Below, piece by piece: positions 49,361 through 58,920 of a DNA stretch of 64,000 bases. The notes below the pieces were generated by a model. It was not told the DNA's origin, searched no databases, and saw only the letters and a list, made by a program, of their open reading frames with translations. The first letter of the stretch is position 1; every line of letters starts with the position of its first letter. The stretch covers positions 73,813 through 137,812 of the forward strand of contig JAHZLH010000027.1 of the NCBI GenBank assembly GCA_022599915.1, in the 5' to 3' direction. Position numbers and translations under genes: made by a program. Source of the stretch: Actinomycetes bacterium (GTDB lineage Bacteria > Actinomycetota > Actinomycetes > S36-B12 > GCA-2699445).

Positions 49361-50311
49361 GTGATGGCGGGCCGATCGTGGGTACTCGCCTATCTGGCGC
49401 TGGCACTCATGTGGGGTATGAGTTTCGCCTTCAATCAACTGTCACTGGAATCATTTACTCCCCTGCAGATCACCGCAGGCCGGATGGGTCTAGGTGGATT
49501 GACTCTGCTGACCATTTTGCTGGTCACGAAGAACGCCCCGCGACCCAACCGCACCGAGTTACGACACCTGATCATTCTTGGCGTATTCGGTCTCGCGCTG
49601 CCATTCACCTTGATTTCCTTCGCCCAGACACAAATCACCTCCATCCTGGCGGGGCTGCTCAACGCGGCCACACCACTGTTCGCGGGCATCATCATTACGC
49701 TGCTGATCCCTGCCGAACGACCTGACCGAACGCAGGCGGTGGGACTCGTCGTGGGTTTCGCGGGCATCGCGGTGCTGATCGGTGTGTGGGAAGCATTTGA
49801 CGAGGGCTTCGCCACCCCTGCTGGTATTGCAGCGATGATCGGGGCCAGCCTGTGCTACGGCTTTGCTACCTCCTTCAGCCGCTTGAAGCTGTCCGCTTCC
49901 AGCCTGTCGGGAAGTCAGCTCAGCTCGGTGCAACTACTGGCAGGCGCGGGAATGGCGCTGCTCTTGCTTCCGATAGACCCAGTGCCCGATCGCGGGGGCA
50001 TCACGTGGTCGGCAACTGCGGCTCTCGTAGTACTCGGTGTGCTCGGCACCGGTGTGGCGATGGTGCTGATGTGGCACGTCATTCGACAAGCGGGTTCCAC
50101 TATTGCCGCGACTGTCACTTACGCGATCCCAGTGGTGTCCACCACCATCGGTGTGACGCTGTTGGCCGAACGACTGGAGTGGAATGAGATTGTCGGCGGC
50201 CTGATTGTCATCTTCGGCGTCGTACTGACCCAATGGACGCAACTGACCCGGCGTCACGACTTCGGCGGCACTCGCGCATCGACGACAGCGGAGACGACTG
50301 AGGCTGGCTAG
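49361..50311 (+). CDS. EamA/DMT-family transporter
   Basis: 10-TM protein with two EamA-like halves (..LALMWGMSFAF..; ..VLGVLGTGVAMVLMW..). Confidence 0.85.
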   Translation: MMAGRSWVLAYLALALMWGMSFAFNQLSLESFTPLQITAGRMGLGGLTLLTILLVTKNAPRPNRTELRHLIILGVFGLALPFTLISFAQTQITSILAGLLNAATPLFAGIIITLLIPAERPDRTQAVGLVVGFAGIAVLIGVWEAFDEGFATPAGIAAMIGASLCYGFATSFSRLKLSASSLSGSQLSSVQLLAGAGMALLLLPIDPVPDRGGITWSATAALVVLGVLGTGVAMVLMWHVIRQAGSTIAATVTYAIPVVSTTIGVTLLAERLEWNEIVGGLIVIFGVVLTQWTQLTRRHDFGGTRASTTAETTEAG

Positions 50312-50312
50312 T

Positions 50313-51920
50313 TCACTCACCCTGGCGGATGAACCAAAACCGCAAGGCGTCGTCGAGTGCGAGCCAGGAGGCTTCTATGACGTTTTCGTGGACACCCACG
50401 GTCTGCCACTCCTCGGCACTGTCTGTGCTGCTGATCAACACCCGGGTCACTGCGTCGGTGCCCTCCACCCCGTCCAAGATTCGAACCTTGTAGTCCACCA
50501 ACTTCATATCCGACAGTTCCGGGTGCGCGCCTAGCAACGCCTTGCGTAGTGCATTATCCAAAGCGTTGACCGGGCCGTTTCCCTCCGCGGTGGAAATCAC
50601 TCGTTCACCGTCAATGTCAATCTTGACCGTTGCCTCGCTCACCACCCGGCCATCGGCTCGGCGCTCCACCAATGCTCGCCACGACTCCAAAAGATAAGGC
50701 GGTGATGGGCGGTCTCCGGTCTCATCACGCAGCATCAGTTCAAATGAGGCATCGGCCGCCTCGAAGGACCAGCCGCCCGCTTCTAGTTCTTTCACTCGAT
50801 TCGTGAGCCGGGTGAGCGCACCGCGATCGGCAGCAAGGTCAAAGCCGAGTTCTTTGCTCTTCATTTCCACCGAGGCCCGGCCCGCCATTTCGGTGACCAG
50901 CACTCTCATGTCGTTGCCAACGAGGTCTGGATCGATGTGGTTATACAGATCGTTGTTCACCTTGAGCGCGCTGGCATGTAGTCCTGCTTTGTGAGCGAAG
51001 GAAGAGATGCCCGCATAGGGCTGGTGAGTGTCTGGAGGAAGGTTGGCAATGTCAGCGACAGCGTGCGACACCCGCACCGTCTCGGCCAGATTGCCCGGTG
51101 GCAGCACTGGAATACCCATCTTCAGTTCTAGGTTGGCAGTGACCGCGAAGATATCGGCATTGCCGGTTCGTTCCCCGTAGCCATTAGCGGTGCCTTGCAC
51201 ATGAGTAACGCCAGCTTCCACTGCGGCGATGGTGTTTGCGACCGCACAACCGGTGTCGTCTTGACAGTGGATCCCGAGTCGCACCCCGCTGCGCTCGGCA
51301 ACGTCGGTGACCACTCGGGAAATTCCCGATGGCAGCATTCCGCCGTTGGTGTCGCATAACACCCCTACCGAAGCACCAGCCTCGGCGGCCGCCACCAGCA
51401 ACCGGACACCATAGTCCGCGTCATGGTCGTAGCCGTCAAAGAAGTGCTCCATATCGACAAAGACCCGCCGCCCTTCGCCCACGAGATACGCGACAGTGTC
51501 GGAAATCATGGCCACGTTCTCATCCAGGGTGGTGCGCAGCGCTAGGTCGACATGGCGAACGTCCGATTTAGCCACCAGCGTGATGACCGGCGCCTGGGAG
51601 GCTAACAACGCAGCCACCTGCGGGTCGTCCGCAGCGGCCACTCCGGGCTTGCGAGTGGCACCGAAGGCCACCAACTGGGCGTTAGTCAGTTTTAGTTCAG
51701 TCTGAGCTTGCGCGAAGAACTCTGTGTCTTTCGGCATGGCTCCGGGCCAGCCACCTTCGATGAAGCCAACACCGTACTCGTCCAATAGCCGAGCAACAGC
51801 GAGCTTGTCCGGCACCGAAAAGGAGATCCCTTCCCGCTGCGCACCATCGCGCAGCGTGGTGTCGAAGACGTGGAACTCGTTATTGGGCAGTTCCGGTGCG
51901 CCTGTCAGCTGGGACGCCAT
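50313..51920 (-). CDS. cimA: citramalate synthase (LeuA-related, CimA type)
   Basis: ATG 51920 lies 5 nt after GAGGAGGA. Sequence FHVFDTTLRDGAQREGISFSV..GVGFIEGGWPGA.., HCQDDTG and a LeuA-dimer-like C-terminus. The shorter N-terminus and the GGWPGA motif distinguish it from the LeuA at 58957. Confidence 0.85.
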   Translation of the reverse strand: MASQLTGAPELPNNEFHVFDTTLRDGAQREGISFSVPDKLAVARLLDEYGVGFIEGGWPGAMPKDTEFFAQAQTELKLTNAQLVAFGATRKPGVAAADDPQVAALLASQAPVITLVAKSDVRHVDLALRTTLDENVAMISDTVAYLVGEGRRVFVDMEHFFDGYDHDADYGVRLLVAAAEAGASVGVLCDTNGGMLPSGISRVVTDVAERSGVRLGIHCQDDTGCAVANTIAAVEAGVTHVQGTANGYGERTGNADIFAVTANLELKMGIPVLPPGNLAETVRVSHAVADIANLPPDTHQPYAGISSFAHKAGLHASALKVNNDLYNHIDPDLVGNDMRVLVTEMAGRASVEMKSKELGFDLAADRGALTRLTNRVKELEAGGWSFEAADASFELMLRDETGDRPSPPYLLESWRALVERRADGRVVSEATVKIDIDGERVISTAEGNGPVNALDNALRKALLGAHPELSDMKLVDYKVRILDGVEGTDAVTRVLISSTDSAEEWQTVGVHENVIEASWLALDDALRFWFIRQGE

Positions 51921-51960
51921 CGGTGTCCTCCTCATCTTCCTGTTCTGGGCCGTCATCAAT

Positions 51961-52045
51961 GAAAAACCCCCTCGCCTAGGGCGTAGGGGGTTCGCGCGGC
52001 AGGTGGGCCTGTCGCGCGCTAGATAATAATGATGACCGCAGTCAC
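51961..52045 (-). promoter_or_regulatory. putative leader-peptide transcription attenuator (Ile-codon run) upstream of cimA
   Basis: Minus strand: GTG ACT GCG GTC ATC ATT ATT ATC TAG (52045->52019). An 11-bp-stem hairpin follows (52018->51993), then a 12-bp hairpin plus TTTTT (51992->51962). Confidence 0.65.
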
Positions 52046-52100
52046 CCGCCTATGGTGACACTCTCCGCCGCATCAGGGCAACCGAGGTAGCGAAACTGGG

Positions 52101-52745
52101 CTACTCACGCCGTTGGCTGTCGCCGGTAGCCCGAGCGAGACCCTGCTGAAAAAACTCCACTGCCGCGGCAGTTTTGCCCCCATGATCCGACCCCGTCAAC
52201 TCCCGTATCGGTAGTGCGGCACCGAACGGCAGATTCCAGAACGGATCCGCATTGACCTGGTCGGGGCCAACGTAGGCGTAGGCCTCCGGCATGGCCGAGT
52301 CCGGCGGCGCAACGCCAAAGTTGATGTCGCGAAAGCGAATCGCCACGTCCAAGTGTTCCGGCCACAGGATGGGTGTCTCACCTGGTTGAAAGAGCCGAAG
52401 CGCATCGCATCCGATCAGGTACTCAGCATGGATCAACGCGAGCTCCGCGGGGTCGAGCTGCAGCACCGTATCTGGGTTCGCGGGGACCGGATCGTGGTAG
52501 TCGACCTCGGGACGACCCAACGGCAAACCGGCGGCAGTGGCGATCTCGCTAATGCTGCCGACTACCGGGACAGTGCGGCCCTCGGCGGTGAGAACCACCC
52601 CGGTGAGTTCTATCGCGGGCTCCCGCGAGGTGGCGAAGCCGGCGTCAGACACTCGCAGCCGGACGGTGTCACTGCGCGCGTGTTGCGGACCGGCCAGTAG
52701 CCACTCACAGATGGCGTGGAGTGATGACCTGGTCGCTGAGCTCAC
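52101..52745 (-). CDS. hypothetical protein (between ilvE and cimA)
   Basis: GTG 52745 lies 9 nt after the ilvE TAA; the tracked ORF start (52973) is inside ilvE. The composition is protein-like and no family is recognised. Confidence 0.55.
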   Translation of the reverse strand: MSSATRSSLHAICEWLLAGPQHARSDTVRLRVSDAGFATSREPAIELTGVVLTAEGRTVPVVGSISEIATAAGLPLGRPEVDYHDPVPANPDTVLQLDPAELALIHAEYLIGCDALRLFQPGETPILWPEHLDVAIRFRDINFGVAPPDSAMPEAYAYVGPDQVNADPFWNLPFGAALPIRELTGSDHGGKTAAAVEFFQQGLARATGDSQRRE

Positions 52746-52753
52746 GAGTCGCC

Positions 52754-53863
52754 TTATCCGACTCGTTCCAACCAGCCGTACGGGTCCGGTGCCGCACCCG
52801 TCTGAATGTCCAGCAGTGACTGCCGCAGCCGGGACGTGATCGGCCCAGCGTTGCCGTCTCCGACCGTCCAGTTCCCGTTCCGGCTCTTGACGTGACCGAC
52901 CGGAGTGATGACTGCTGCAGTACCGCAGGCAAACACTTCGGTCAGTTCGCCAGATTCGTTGGCCTGCTGCCATTCCTCGACGCTGATCCGGCCTTCTTCC
53001 ACCTGGTAGCCAAGGTCAGCGCCCAGCCGCAACAGCGAATCCCGCGTGATGCCCGGCAGCAGGGAACCGGTCAGCGAGGGCGTCATCAGCCGGGCATTTT
53101 CGCCGCTGCCGAAGACGAAGTAGAGGTTCATACCGCCCATCTCTTCGACCCAGCGGTGCTCGTTGGCGTCCAGCCACACCACCTGATCGCAGCCGTGTTC
53201 TGCGGCTTCTGCCTGCGCGATCAACGAAGCCGCATAGTTTCCCGCGCACTTGGCCTCACCGGTACCACCCGGTGCTGCCCGCACATAGTCCTCCGACAGC
53301 CACACCGTCACCGGCTGCAGGCCACCTTTGAAGTAGGCGCCAGCCGGTGAAGCGATCAGCAGGTACAGGTATTCATCGGCGGGGCGCACGCCAAGGCCCA
53401 CTTCGGTGGAGAACATGAAGGGCCGAAGGTAGAGCGACTTCTCTTGATCCTGCGGTACCCAATCCCCATCCTGGGCGATCAGCGCCCGGACGGATTCCAA
53501 GAACAGCTCCTCGGGTAACTCCGCCATGGCAAGACGGCGAGCGGAGCGCTGAAAGCGCTGCGCATTCGCTTCCGGCCGGAAGGTGTAGATCGCGCCGTCA
53601 GCGTGCCGGTAGGCCTTGAGCCCTTCAAAGATCGACTGACCGTAGTGAATCGAGTTGGTCGCCGGATCCAGGCTCAATGGGCCGTAGGGAACGACGGCGG
53701 CATCATGCCATCCCTTCTCCGCAATCCATCGCGCTTGCACCATGTGATCGGTGAAGACGTTGCCGAACCCGGGGTCCTGCAGGATCATCTCGCGCTCGTT
53801 GGCGGGCAACGGCGAGGGGTTGGCGCGCAGCGGGAACTGCGTGTCACTGTGCGACATCGACAT
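52754..53863 (-). CDS. ilvE: branched-chain amino acid aminotransferase
   Basis: 369 aa, long actinobacterial form. Sequence ..FTDHMV.., ..[21 protein letters not shown].., ..[15 protein letters not shown].., ..GITRDS... Confidence 0.94.
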
Positions 53864-54026
53864 GGCAGGCTCCGAACCGGTGGTGTGCGCTTAGTGTGGC
53901 CTACTAAGATACCGGCACCGACCCCGGTACTGTCTTTTGCATTGCACGCTAGTGGGTCGCTTACTGGCTGGCATATTGCTTCTGGCCTGTTTCGGCGGCA
54001 GGGACTCTGCGGCAAGAAAGGCGACC

Positions 54027-55079
54027 GTGACCGCGCAGATTGTGATCACCACCAATCAACTCAACCTAGGTGGAGCTGAACAGCAAAGAATCGCGCTCGC
54101 CAATGGGCTCGCAGCTCGAGGGCACTCGGTCACTATGTTGGTCATCCAGGACCCGGGCATGTTCGCTGACTCACTTGCCGATGGCGTCAACCTCGAGGTA
54201 CAAGGATGGCGCTCAGCACGCGCCCCCGATAGTGGTCAGGACTCTGTCACGGTCATCACCGGCACCACTCACACCGAGTGTGCCGTTGGGCTGCGCTGGC
54301 GCTATCTGAACCTTCGAGATCGATGCCGGTGGCTAGTGGCTTGCCACTCATCGCGAAGTGATGGACCAAACTACGGCCACAGGTTGGGATGGATGATCCG
54401 GCGCAGTGATCGGGTCATCGCCCTTTCGCAGGGACACTGGCGTGAACTAACAGCCCATCAGAAGCTCTCGTCAACTGCGCCACTCATCGTACCCAACGGC
54501 GTGGCCCGAGAATCGGTTCAACAACCTGCCCGCCAGATGGTCCCGGGCCGACCAGTTCGCCTCGTCTTCGTGGGACGCCTAGTCGAAGAAAAGGGAGTCC
54601 AGGTCGCCATTGCTGCGCTCACTGAACTTGAAGAACTTTCCTGGGAGTTTGATATCTATGGTCAAGGAGATTTTGAGAGCCAGCTCGCCAGTTGCATCCC
54701 GCCCCACTTGTCGGATCGCATTGTCTTGCGCGGATCCACCCAAACGCCGATCGCCGTCATGAAGGAAGCCGATCTCCTCCTGCTTCCTAGCCGGGCGGAG
54801 GCGCAGCCCATGGTATTGCTAGAGGCCATGTCGGCAGGAACCGCGACCATGGCAGTAGGAGTAGGAGCAGTGCCCGAAATACTGTCCGGCGGCTGTGGTG
54901 TCCTCATGGCCGACCAATCGGTATCCGCTTGGCGCGAGGCGTTACGAAGAGCTATCACCAATCCCGAGCAGTTGCTCGAACTCGGGCAACGCGGCTGGAA
55001 ATGCGGCCAGAAGTACTCCGTCGATCAGATGATCGACGGCTACGAACAGGCCATCGAGTCGGCGTGGCGCAGCGACTAG
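54027..55079 (+). CDS. glycosyltransferase, GT4/GT-B fold
   Basis: GTG 54027 lies 5 nt after AAGAAAGG. N-terminus ..NQLNLGGAEQQ... C-terminus ..LLLPSRAEAQPMVLLEAMSAGTATMA.. (E-x7-E). Confidence 0.85.
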   Translation: MTAQIVITTNQLNLGGAEQQRIALANGLAARGHSVTMLVIQDPGMFADSLADGVNLEVQGWRSARAPDSGQDSVTVITGTTHTECAVGLRWRYLNLRDRCRWLVACHSSRSDGPNYGHRLGWMIRRSDRVIALSQGHWRELTAHQKLSSTAPLIVPNGVARESVQQPARQMVPGRPVRLVFVGRLVEEKGVQVAIAALTELEELSWEFDIYGQGDFESQLASCIPPHLSDRIVLRGSTQTPIAVMKEADLLLLPSRAEAQPMVLLEAMSAGTATMAVGVGAVPEILSGGCGVLMADQSVSAWREALRRAITNPEQLLELGQRGWKCGQKYSVDQMIDGYEQAIESAWRSD

Positions 55080-58843: not shown

Positions 58844-58920
58844 ATGTTCGACGCGGTTCTGCTTCTTGGCAGCCGCGGTGGAGCCTCATAAGACTGGCCA
58901 CTCCACCGCGGTGGCTTTCG
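58844..58920 (+). promoter_or_regulatory. putative Leu-codon leader ORF plus hairpin upstream of leuA
   Basis: ATG TTC GAC GCG GTT CTG CTT CTT GGC AGC CGC GGT GGA GCC TCA TAA (58844..58891). A perfect 11-bp stem pairs CCGCGGTGGAG (58873-83) with CTCCACCGCGG (58901-11), followed by TGGCTTTCG. Confidence 0.55.

Follow-up and report, generated by a model that had tools for sequence, protein, structure and literature searches.

An isoleucine-codon leader in front of the citramalate synthase gene of actinomycetes, a probable ribosome-mediated attenuator related to the ilvB leader

We analyzed a stretch of 64,000 nucleotides (here called the window) from an Actinomycetes bacterium (assembly GCA_022599915.1, contig JAHZLH010000027.1, positions 73,813 to 137,812), in which a compact element precedes cimA, the gene for citramalate synthase. 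The element is made up of a small open reading frame (sORF) with four consecutive isoleucine codons and of two hairpins, P1 and P2, the second of which is a predicted intrinsic terminator. We consider it very likely that this is a leaderless, ribosome-mediated transcription attenuator through which cimA responds to charged tRNA-Ile, and a paralogue of the leader known from actinobacterial ilvB genes. It is thus a known kind of regulatory element, on a gene for which literature searches, with most subscription journals outside their coverage, found no published description of such a leader.

Results

All positions are counted from the first letter of the window. A preliminary description, made from the letters alone, had reported an isoleucine-codon leader ORF, hairpins and a terminator upstream of cimA, and the minus-strand sequence confirmed the elements, their coordinates and their letters. 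The parts are listed in the order of transcription; peptides are quoted, here and below, up to the stop codon.

52081 to 52076, minus strand: -35-like hexamer TTGCCC, a predicted promoter part read from the sequence, 18 nt 5' of the -10 box
52060 to 52052, minus strand: predicted extended -10 box TGT-CACCAT, with AGGCGG (6 nt) between the box and the GTG
52045 to 52019, minus strand: leader ORF GTG ACT GCG GTC ATC ATT ATT ATC TAG (MTAVIIII), 8 codons, read from the sequence
52033 to 52022, minus strand: sensor codons ATC ATT ATT ATC, four consecutive Ile
52018 to 51993, minus strand: hairpin P1, CGCGCGACAGG-CCCA-CCTGCCGCGCG, directly 3' of the stop, from the fold
51992 to 51965, minus strand: predicted intrinsic terminator hairpin P2, AACCCCCTACGCC-CTA-GGCGAGGGGGTT, abutting P1 with a 0-nt linker, from the fold
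51966 to 51962, minus strand: T-run of five T, then C; P2 and the T-run together occupy 51992 to 51962
51933 to 51926, minus strand: cimA Shine-Dalgarno sequence (SD), GAGGAGGA
51920 to 50313, minus strand: cimA, citramalate synthase (TIGR00977), with its ATG at 51920, 41 nt past the element

The cimA product scored 599.9 bits against TIGR00977 (cut-off 450). In close relatives, TTGCCC or TTGCGC stands at the position equivalent to the -35-like hexamer. No SD was seen in the sequence at a usable distance before the leader GTG. Two details of the preliminary description had to be amended. The first hairpin, given there as an 11-bp stem, has 10 Watson-Crick pairs and one A.C mismatch. The TTTTT placed after the second hairpin does contain five T, but two of them are the 'TT' within the P2 stem and had been counted twice. 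The base of P1 is a GC clamp (CGCGCG/CGCGCG) that begins 3 nt past the last Ile codon. A run of four ATH codons, ATHATHATHATH, occurs once in the 64-kb window (both strands) compared to 0.06 expected. The fold of the 88-nt leader has an energy of -43.6 kcal/mol (z = -5.27), which none of 200 shuffled sequences equaled. A cmscan of positions 50000 to 54500 against Rfam (E <= 10), which included the Leu, Thr, Trp and His leaders, the T-box and the ppGpp/ilvB riboswitch motifs, gave nothing on the leader and two chance-level matches elsewhere.

We examined the conservation of the element relative to cimA. The gene was found in 40 of 41 related genomes, and the element precedes it in 27 of the 30 loci fetched from relatives. 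The preliminary description had left the conservation of the Ile run and hairpins to an alignment of such leaders; both are conserved in these 27 relatives, and the Ile core recurs in all 111 homologous leaders that we parsed. In the three exceptions (loci L010, L026 and L030), ilvE abuts cimA with no space between the genes, and the whole element is absent, not the sORF alone. Most relatives have ilvE directly 5' of the leader. The element is also kept in loci with an unrelated or a divergent gene upstream (L005, L008, L011, L013, L017 and others).

A covariance model, R1, was built from the cimA leaders of the 27 relatives only (alignment A1). In a class-wide sample of 401 genomes, at least one copy was detected in 272, and in 135 of 175 genera. 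The best 30 class-wide matches were all located upstream of cimA orthologues (62 to 84% identity). Our named-genome set consisted of the 80 named actinomycete cimA loci among the matches listed, and in 74 of these the element lies on the cimA strand. Carriers include Streptomyces, Micromonospora, Actinoplanes, Dactylosporangium, Amycolatopsis, Kutzneria, Saccharopolyspora and several metagenome-assembled genomes from lakes and soil. Conservation across most actinomycetes makes the switch almost certainly real; judged from these sequence comparisons, the element is almost certainly a conserved regulatory element that belongs to cimA and turns the gene on when isoleucine is short.

The Streptomyces copies (L105 and L116 to L161) have their own form. 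Their leader, MLSFAMIIGSRRAGPQ, stops within P1 and lies about 110 to 260 nt upstream of cimA; P1 is expanded and branched, with a length of about 75 nt, and both Ile codons are usually ATT, a very rare codon. The cimA gene of S. coelicolor is presumably SCO5529. Two loci from metagenome-assembled genomes titled 'Bifidobacterium breve', L082 (CAMCSO010000010.1) and L089 (CAMAVT010000124.1), have cimA genes 68 to 75% identical to that of the window, and the species label looks wrong. L082, the most similar among the 80 loci listed, carries the leader, and L089 is without a model match.

We next considered the leader ORF itself. The 111 homologous leaders yielded ORFs of 8 to 18 codons. In 105 of them, in line with the earlier suggestion that the sORF could be leaderless, a hexamer whose second and sixth letters are A and T is situated 6 to 7 nt before an in-frame GTG or ATG. 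TG occupies the extended -10 position in 102 leaders, and C is found at the first hexamer position in 94, so that the hexamer reads CAnnnT and the box TGnCAnnnT. With a -10 box 6 to 7 nt from the start codon, the transcript should begin at or next to that codon, as in a leaderless mRNA. This arrangement supports a leaderless leader transcript, with a conserved promoter predicted to place the 5' end at the GTG. As a separate observation, the class-wide C instead of T at the first position of the -10 hexamer is a non-canonical -12 base, and it is nearly always accompanied by the extended TG.

The ends of the leader peptides (8 to 18 residues) vary, and a core of I-I, I-I-I or I-I-I-I is invariant; a run of 2 to 4 Ile codons was present in 111 of the 111 leaders. 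Codon choice within the run is unusual as well. In the named high-GC loci, ATT accounts for 70% of the Ile codons in the leaders compared to 4.2% in the adjacent cimA coding sequences, a 17-fold enrichment. In the genome studied here (61% GC), ATT makes up 27% of Ile codons, and the leader uses it for 2 of 4. Codons that are decoded slowly, by wobble, may make the response to charged tRNA-Ile sharper, and such a bias would then be expected. Together, promoter spacing and codon content are indirect evidence that the small ORF is translated and serves as a leaderless sensor.

To compare the two hairpins among leaders, the helix arms were taken from each sequence's own fold, because MAFFT and RNAalifold on raw leaders recovered the helix bases only; the pair counts that follow are therefore biased toward structure. 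Compensatory double changes were seen at 14 of 17 basal pairs (6 of 9 in P1 and 8 of 8 in P2), and 96.8% of the cells were paired compared to 83.3% in shuffles. The covariation score was 0.504; for shuffles it was 0.231, and none of 500 reached the real value. Shifting the partner by one to three columns dropped pairing to 30 to 60%. Furthermore, cognate P1 and P2 arms paired better than non-cognate ones, also when the conserved base was left out. From these comparisons, we regard P1 and P2 as real helices.

Their placement is similarly constrained. In 106 leaders, the last Ile codon lies 2 to 8 nt before the first P1 pair (modes 5 and 8), and P1 and P2 adjoin without a linker in 91 of them and are no more than 2 nt apart in the rest. 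The stop codon falls just before P1 in 54 leaders and within P1 in 52, where the 5' arm encodes ...(K/E/R)-R-V-G. The five-pair base of P1 has a stability of -13.2 kcal/mol, compared to -10.5 kcal/mol for the A-U/G-U-rich base of P2, and the P1 base is the more stable one in 89 of 103 leaders.

R1 also revealed a family of sister leaders. A second match in the same genome (49.9 bits, E = 1e-8) lies upstream of ilvB, which codes for the large subunit of acetolactate synthase.

Genome G000, contig C45, 21674 to 21769 (locus L032, 1501 to 1596), minus strand: ilvB leader, R1 match

This leader reads CACCAT-6 nt-GTG CGA AGA ACA CGC CTC GTA GTT ACC TAG-CGCGTCGGC... (MRRTRLVVT), followed by P1, P2 and TTTTTCGTT. 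It contains Leu and Val codons and no Ile codon. In genomes with two matches, the ilvB leader has mixed I/L/V codons (MRFGILVLH, MQTTLILVLGQRAS and others) and the cimA leader has I-I. R1 matched the ilvB leaders of further genomes (L063, L064, L066, L068, L071 to L074, L076, L176 and L180). The same architecture stands before ilvA in one genus (MTVHEMAIT, a single Ile codon) and before leuS in another (MRSTLLLTGPR, with L-L-L). Of the comparative findings, the one that argues most strongly for sensing by a ribosome is that the sensor codons change with the pathway to which the regulated gene belongs. Because cimA lies downstream and the sensor codons are for Ile only, the element before cimA is a sister of the actinobacterial ilvB leader, by sequence its paralogue with Ile sensor codons, and not an ilvB leader itself. 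The layout proposed in the preliminary description, ribosome-mediated attenuation by isoleucine, is borne out to the extent that the sORF with its Ile core, P1 and the terminator are conserved class-wide and that the codons change with the downstream gene.

Loci other than cimA with this leader architecture included L172, L174 and L175 (genus g111), L179 and L183 (genus g68), and L181. The copy at L181 (G224:C24:196628-196725) encodes MFTPRIII, has no recognizable gene downstream and faces a convergent gene for an AMP-binding enzyme.

The pathway context offers an explanation for the choice of codons. No threonine dehydratase (ilvA) scored above cut-off in this genome, which is 98.65% complete (TIGR01124 and TIGR01127); the best scores were 84.6 bits (cut-off 378.75) and 54.9 bits (cut-off 411.3). 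The citramalate route is therefore probably the sole source of 2-oxobutyrate. This makes cimA the committed step to isoleucine and accounts for an Ile-only sensor. A third leader was found in the window, upstream of leuA.

58844 to 58891, plus strand: apparently leaderless leader ORF ATG TTC GAC GCG GTT CTG CTT CTT GGC AGC CGC GGT GGA GCC TCA TAA (MFDAVLLLGSRGGAS), with L-L-L, upstream of leuA

An 11-bp hairpin begins inside this ORF, which bears a likeness to Streptomyces LeuL1; R1 gave no match at 58844 to 58891. From their codons, the three leaders appear to split the branched-chain amino acids among them, with Leu/Val for ilvB, Ile for cimA and Leu for leuA.

Two genes lie upstream of the cimA leader on the same strand.

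53863 to 52754, minus strand: ilvE (NF009897 match, 518 bits)
52745 to 52101, minus strand: hypothetical ORF between ilvE and the cimA leader

The hypothetical ORF had no match in NCBIfam or Pfam; in a genome of the same genus (L004), a C-terminus like that of its product (...FFRQGLARVTG) precedes the leader. The preliminary description had also raised the possibility of an internal attenuator in an ilvE-hypothetical-cimA transcription unit. This has only partial support. Transcripts from upstream would run into P2, and the element has a conserved, predicted promoter of its own. On transcripts arriving from ilvE or the hypothetical ORF, the GTG would be internal and without an SD, and such transcripts would most likely end at P2.

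Discussion

The spacing between the Ile codons and P1 suggests how the position of a ribosome could be read. When the last Ile codon occupies the A site, the first P1 pair is about 11 to 14 nt from the first base of the P-site codon. This is the distance of the mRNA entrance of the ribosome, as known from ribosome footprints and the position of the helicase. A ribosome stalled at Ile would thus spare P1 and one bound at the stop would unzip its clamp, so that P1 would report stalling. According to our model, when Ile-tRNA is plentiful the ribosome would reach the stop codon, which adjoins P1 here and lies inside P1 in about half of the relatives. There it would unzip at least the GCGCG clamp of P1, P2 would close before the U-tract, and transcription would terminate after about 85 nt. 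Under a shortage of Ile-tRNA, the ribosome would stall on the Ile codons with its mRNA entry site just reaching the foot of P1. P1 would then remain intact, termination at P2 would fail, and RNA polymerase would continue into cimA. With the physiologically sensible sign, as demonstrated for ilvB leaders, intact P1 must favor read-through, which would make P1 the functional antiterminator. By analogy, P1 is most likely a ribosome-sensed hairpin equivalent to an antiterminator, and the equivalent hairpin has been proposed as the antiterminator in the M. tuberculosis and Corynebacterium ilvB leaders. Candidate ways in which intact P1 could disable P2 are steric exclusion at the 0-nt junction or capture of the P2 G-run by the C-rich interior of P1.

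Several observations weigh against this reading, and most of them concern the missing alternative structure. The preliminary description had found no convincing antiterminator by eye, and that absence is real: no pairing rose above what base composition gives, and the terminator stayed folded under every ribosome mask. In RNAduplex comparisons of the segments lettered A to D, only A:B and C:D exceeded shuffled complementarity. An alternative pairing above shuffles was not found, with z about 0 for B:C, A:C, the ORF with B, C or D, loop 1 with D, and the tail. When a ribosome was placed on the first or last Ile codon or on the stop in constrained folding, the terminator probability stayed at about 1, and transcripts ending before D showed a single 3-bp GCG:CGC contact. 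A classical antiterminator that shares a strand with the terminator was not found in the leaders, and P1 and P2 share no nucleotides and can coexist thermodynamically. Competition for boundary nucleotides, of the C. glutamicum 'fast attenuator' type, was rejected, as the extension was 0 bp in 100 of 103 leaders (P1 into P2) and in 96 of 103 (P2 into P1). We also considered pairing between the P1 interior and the G-run, of the ilvB-II type. In the window, pairing of CCCACCU in the P1 interior with GAGGGGG would give -10.1 kcal/mol; the corresponding energy is -6 kcal/mol or lower in 67% of leaders. The complementarity of -8.2 kcal/mol compared to -4.1 kcal/mol for a control with C and G swapped is at the level of composition only. 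In addition, this pairing displayed no covariation, and cognate pairs were no better than non-cognate ones; it is kept as a modeled candidate antiterminator that we did not adopt. In the absence of a classical alternative structure, the sign of regulation rests on analogy and physiology. Finally, mutations of the regulatory codons in the S. coelicolor ilvB leader had no effect on regulation, as cited in PMC1262725.

Two other structures were discarded. In a candidate 5' hairpin, P0, the start codon would pair with the Val-Ile codons, but this was at the level of chance, with the start codon paired in 67% of real and 66% of shuffled sequences (mean z = -0.38). The window's minimum-free-energy fold also contains a long-range helix that joins the Ile codons to bases past the U-tract; it was not conserved (ORF:tail z = -0.09).

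The zero linker, the very stable base of P1 and the weaker base of P2 suggest a geometric explanation, in which the attenuator has no antiterminator and its two hairpins exclude each other by geometry and not by shared sequence. We offer this only tentatively and think it rather unlikely as it stands. To terminate, the lowest pairs of P2 would have to form inside the exit channel of RNA polymerase. A clamped P1 with a ribosome docked at its foot could not enter the channel, and the weaker A-U/G-U base of P2 would be held open, resulting in read-through. Once the ribosome has passed the Ile codons and unzipped the clamp, the 3' strand of P1 would become a flexible tether with enough slack for termination. 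If this is true, termination needs translation and the default state is ON, and the ilvB, ilvA and leuS leaders of the class would work in the same way.

One other explanation accepts the sensor and disputes its output. The sORF might sense Ile and act through protection of the 5' end from decay, or through Rho or RNA polymerase pausing, while P2 terminates constitutively with a fixed partial efficiency. This would agree with the prediction that P2 is folded in every ribosome state, and in the unpaired parts of the leader C is abundant and G scarce, as in rut sites. Rho-linked conditional termination at translated upstream ORFs (uORFs) has reportedly been seen in a study of M. tuberculosis. 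However, the strict 0-nt junction and the spacing of 2 to 8 nt between Ile codons and P1 point to a direct link between ribosome position, P1 and P2. Moreover, removal of the terminator from the M. tuberculosis ilvB1 leader changes the phenotype (PMC13236596), and terminator mutations in C. glutamicum derepress 7- to 8-fold (PMC11857589). We therefore judge such an output improbable for the cimA leader.

Still less probable, in our opinion, is a switch in which the P1/P2 RNA binds a protein or a ligand, either in the manner of a riboswitch or as the target of an RNA-binding regulator, and the sORF is incidental or secondary. In its favor, sequence as well as structure is conserved at the base of P1 (GCGCG/CGCGC) and in parts of P2, and the switch is not explained by any antiterminator pairing. 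The S. coelicolor codon mutants, as cited above, would fit such a switch, and a protein was invoked for the leuA LEU element by Seliverstov et al. Yet there are no conserved unpaired nucleotides that could line a ligand pocket, and the P1 loops are unconstrained in sequence and in length, which ranges from 4 nt to about 60 nt (the latter in Streptomyces). The change of sensor codons with the pathway of the downstream gene and the lack of an Rfam match speak against it as well, and changing LVVI to AAAA abolishes induction of the homologous M. tuberculosis leader (PMC13236596).

We give almost no credence to the fallback of the preliminary description, in which the hairpins are simply the terminator of the hypothetical ORF (52745 to 52101), or to its extension in which they serve ilvE as well and the Ile-rich sORF arose by chance: P2 is a canonical terminator downstream of both genes and, with ilvE directly upstream in most relatives, probably ends those transcripts as well, but the element travels with cimA whatever lies upstream, including unrelated or divergent genes, the loci in which ilvE abuts cimA miss all of it, the sORF, Ile core, -10 box at leaderless distance and P1 are conserved class-wide, and neither the run of four ATH codons, with 0.06 expected per window, nor the 17-fold enrichment of ATT over the adjacent cimA coding sequence fits chance.

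A ribosome-mediated attenuator on cimA adds a pathway-specific, Ile-only sensor to the leader peptides of actinobacteria and marks cimA as the regulated committed step to isoleucine in organisms without threonine dehydratase. Its presence in Streptomyces and other industrial actinomycetes is relevant to the engineering of isoleucine or of products derived from 2-oxobutyrate. In addition, more than 100 natural variants in which two hairpins abut and do not overlap represent a challenge to the overlap-based models of ilvB leaders.

Comparison with known systems

The cimA leader is not among the eight leader peptides cataloged for S. lividans, and cimA is mentioned in none of the ilvB-leader papers PMC1262725, PMC10272879, PMC11857589 and PMC13236596. 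The prediction of the ilvB leaders of actinobacteria goes back to 2005, when they were termed 'leader peptides with terminators' and their mechanism was unclear (PMC1262725). In M. tuberculosis, ilvB1 is preceded by a terminated transcript of about 120 nt with ribosome footprints on the uORF, and the LVVI-to-AAAA mutant loses induction (PMC13236596). The C. glutamicum attenuator has three hairpins, and its terminator mutants are the ones derepressed 7- to 8-fold (Ryabchenko 2025, PMC11857589). A Corynebacterium ilvB-II reporter was high in minimal and low in rich medium (Narunsky 2023, PMC10272879).

These leaders (Streptomyces ilvL, ilvB-II, the C. glutamicum leader and the ilvB1 uORF) are the closest relatives of the cimA leader. 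They share with it a leaderless sORF with branched-chain codons just before a GC-rich hairpin, a stop beside or inside that first hairpin, and a second hairpin that forms the terminator with the U-tract. The ...TAG/AAG-CGCG... base of P1 and the TTTTTCGTT tail are common to both as well. They differ in the sensor, which is mixed I/L/V before ilvB and Ile-only (I-I to I-I-I-I) before cimA. Furthermore, the published ilvB models rely on an overlap of terminator and antiterminator, either at a boundary GCC or between the P1 loop and the right shoulder of P2a, whereas no nucleotides are shared at the boundary in the cimA leader.

The enterobacterial attenuators (trpL, hisL, leuL, thrL and ilvL/ivbL) likewise have a run of cognate codons, an intrinsic terminator and the position of the ribosome as the signal. 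In both kinds, the regulatory codons stand at the foot of the first hairpin, and in long variants the stop is located between the strands of this hairpin. Unlike them, the cimA leader is leaderless, has no SD, is 8 codons long, lacks a 2:3 antiterminator that shares a terminator strand and has no Rfam match.

Leaderless sORFs with a codon run that matches the pathway are known from other actinobacterial genes. The mycobacterial poly-Cys sORFs (Canestrari 2020, cited in PMC13236596) are leaderless and have pathway-matched codons but no obvious intrinsic terminator. The leaders of Streptomyces leuS, leuA, trpE and trpS are of the same general type (PMC8079986, PMC1262725). The leuS leaders matched by R1 (MRSTLLLTGPR) have the P1/P2 layout of the cimA leader in common, with another amino acid and another target gene.

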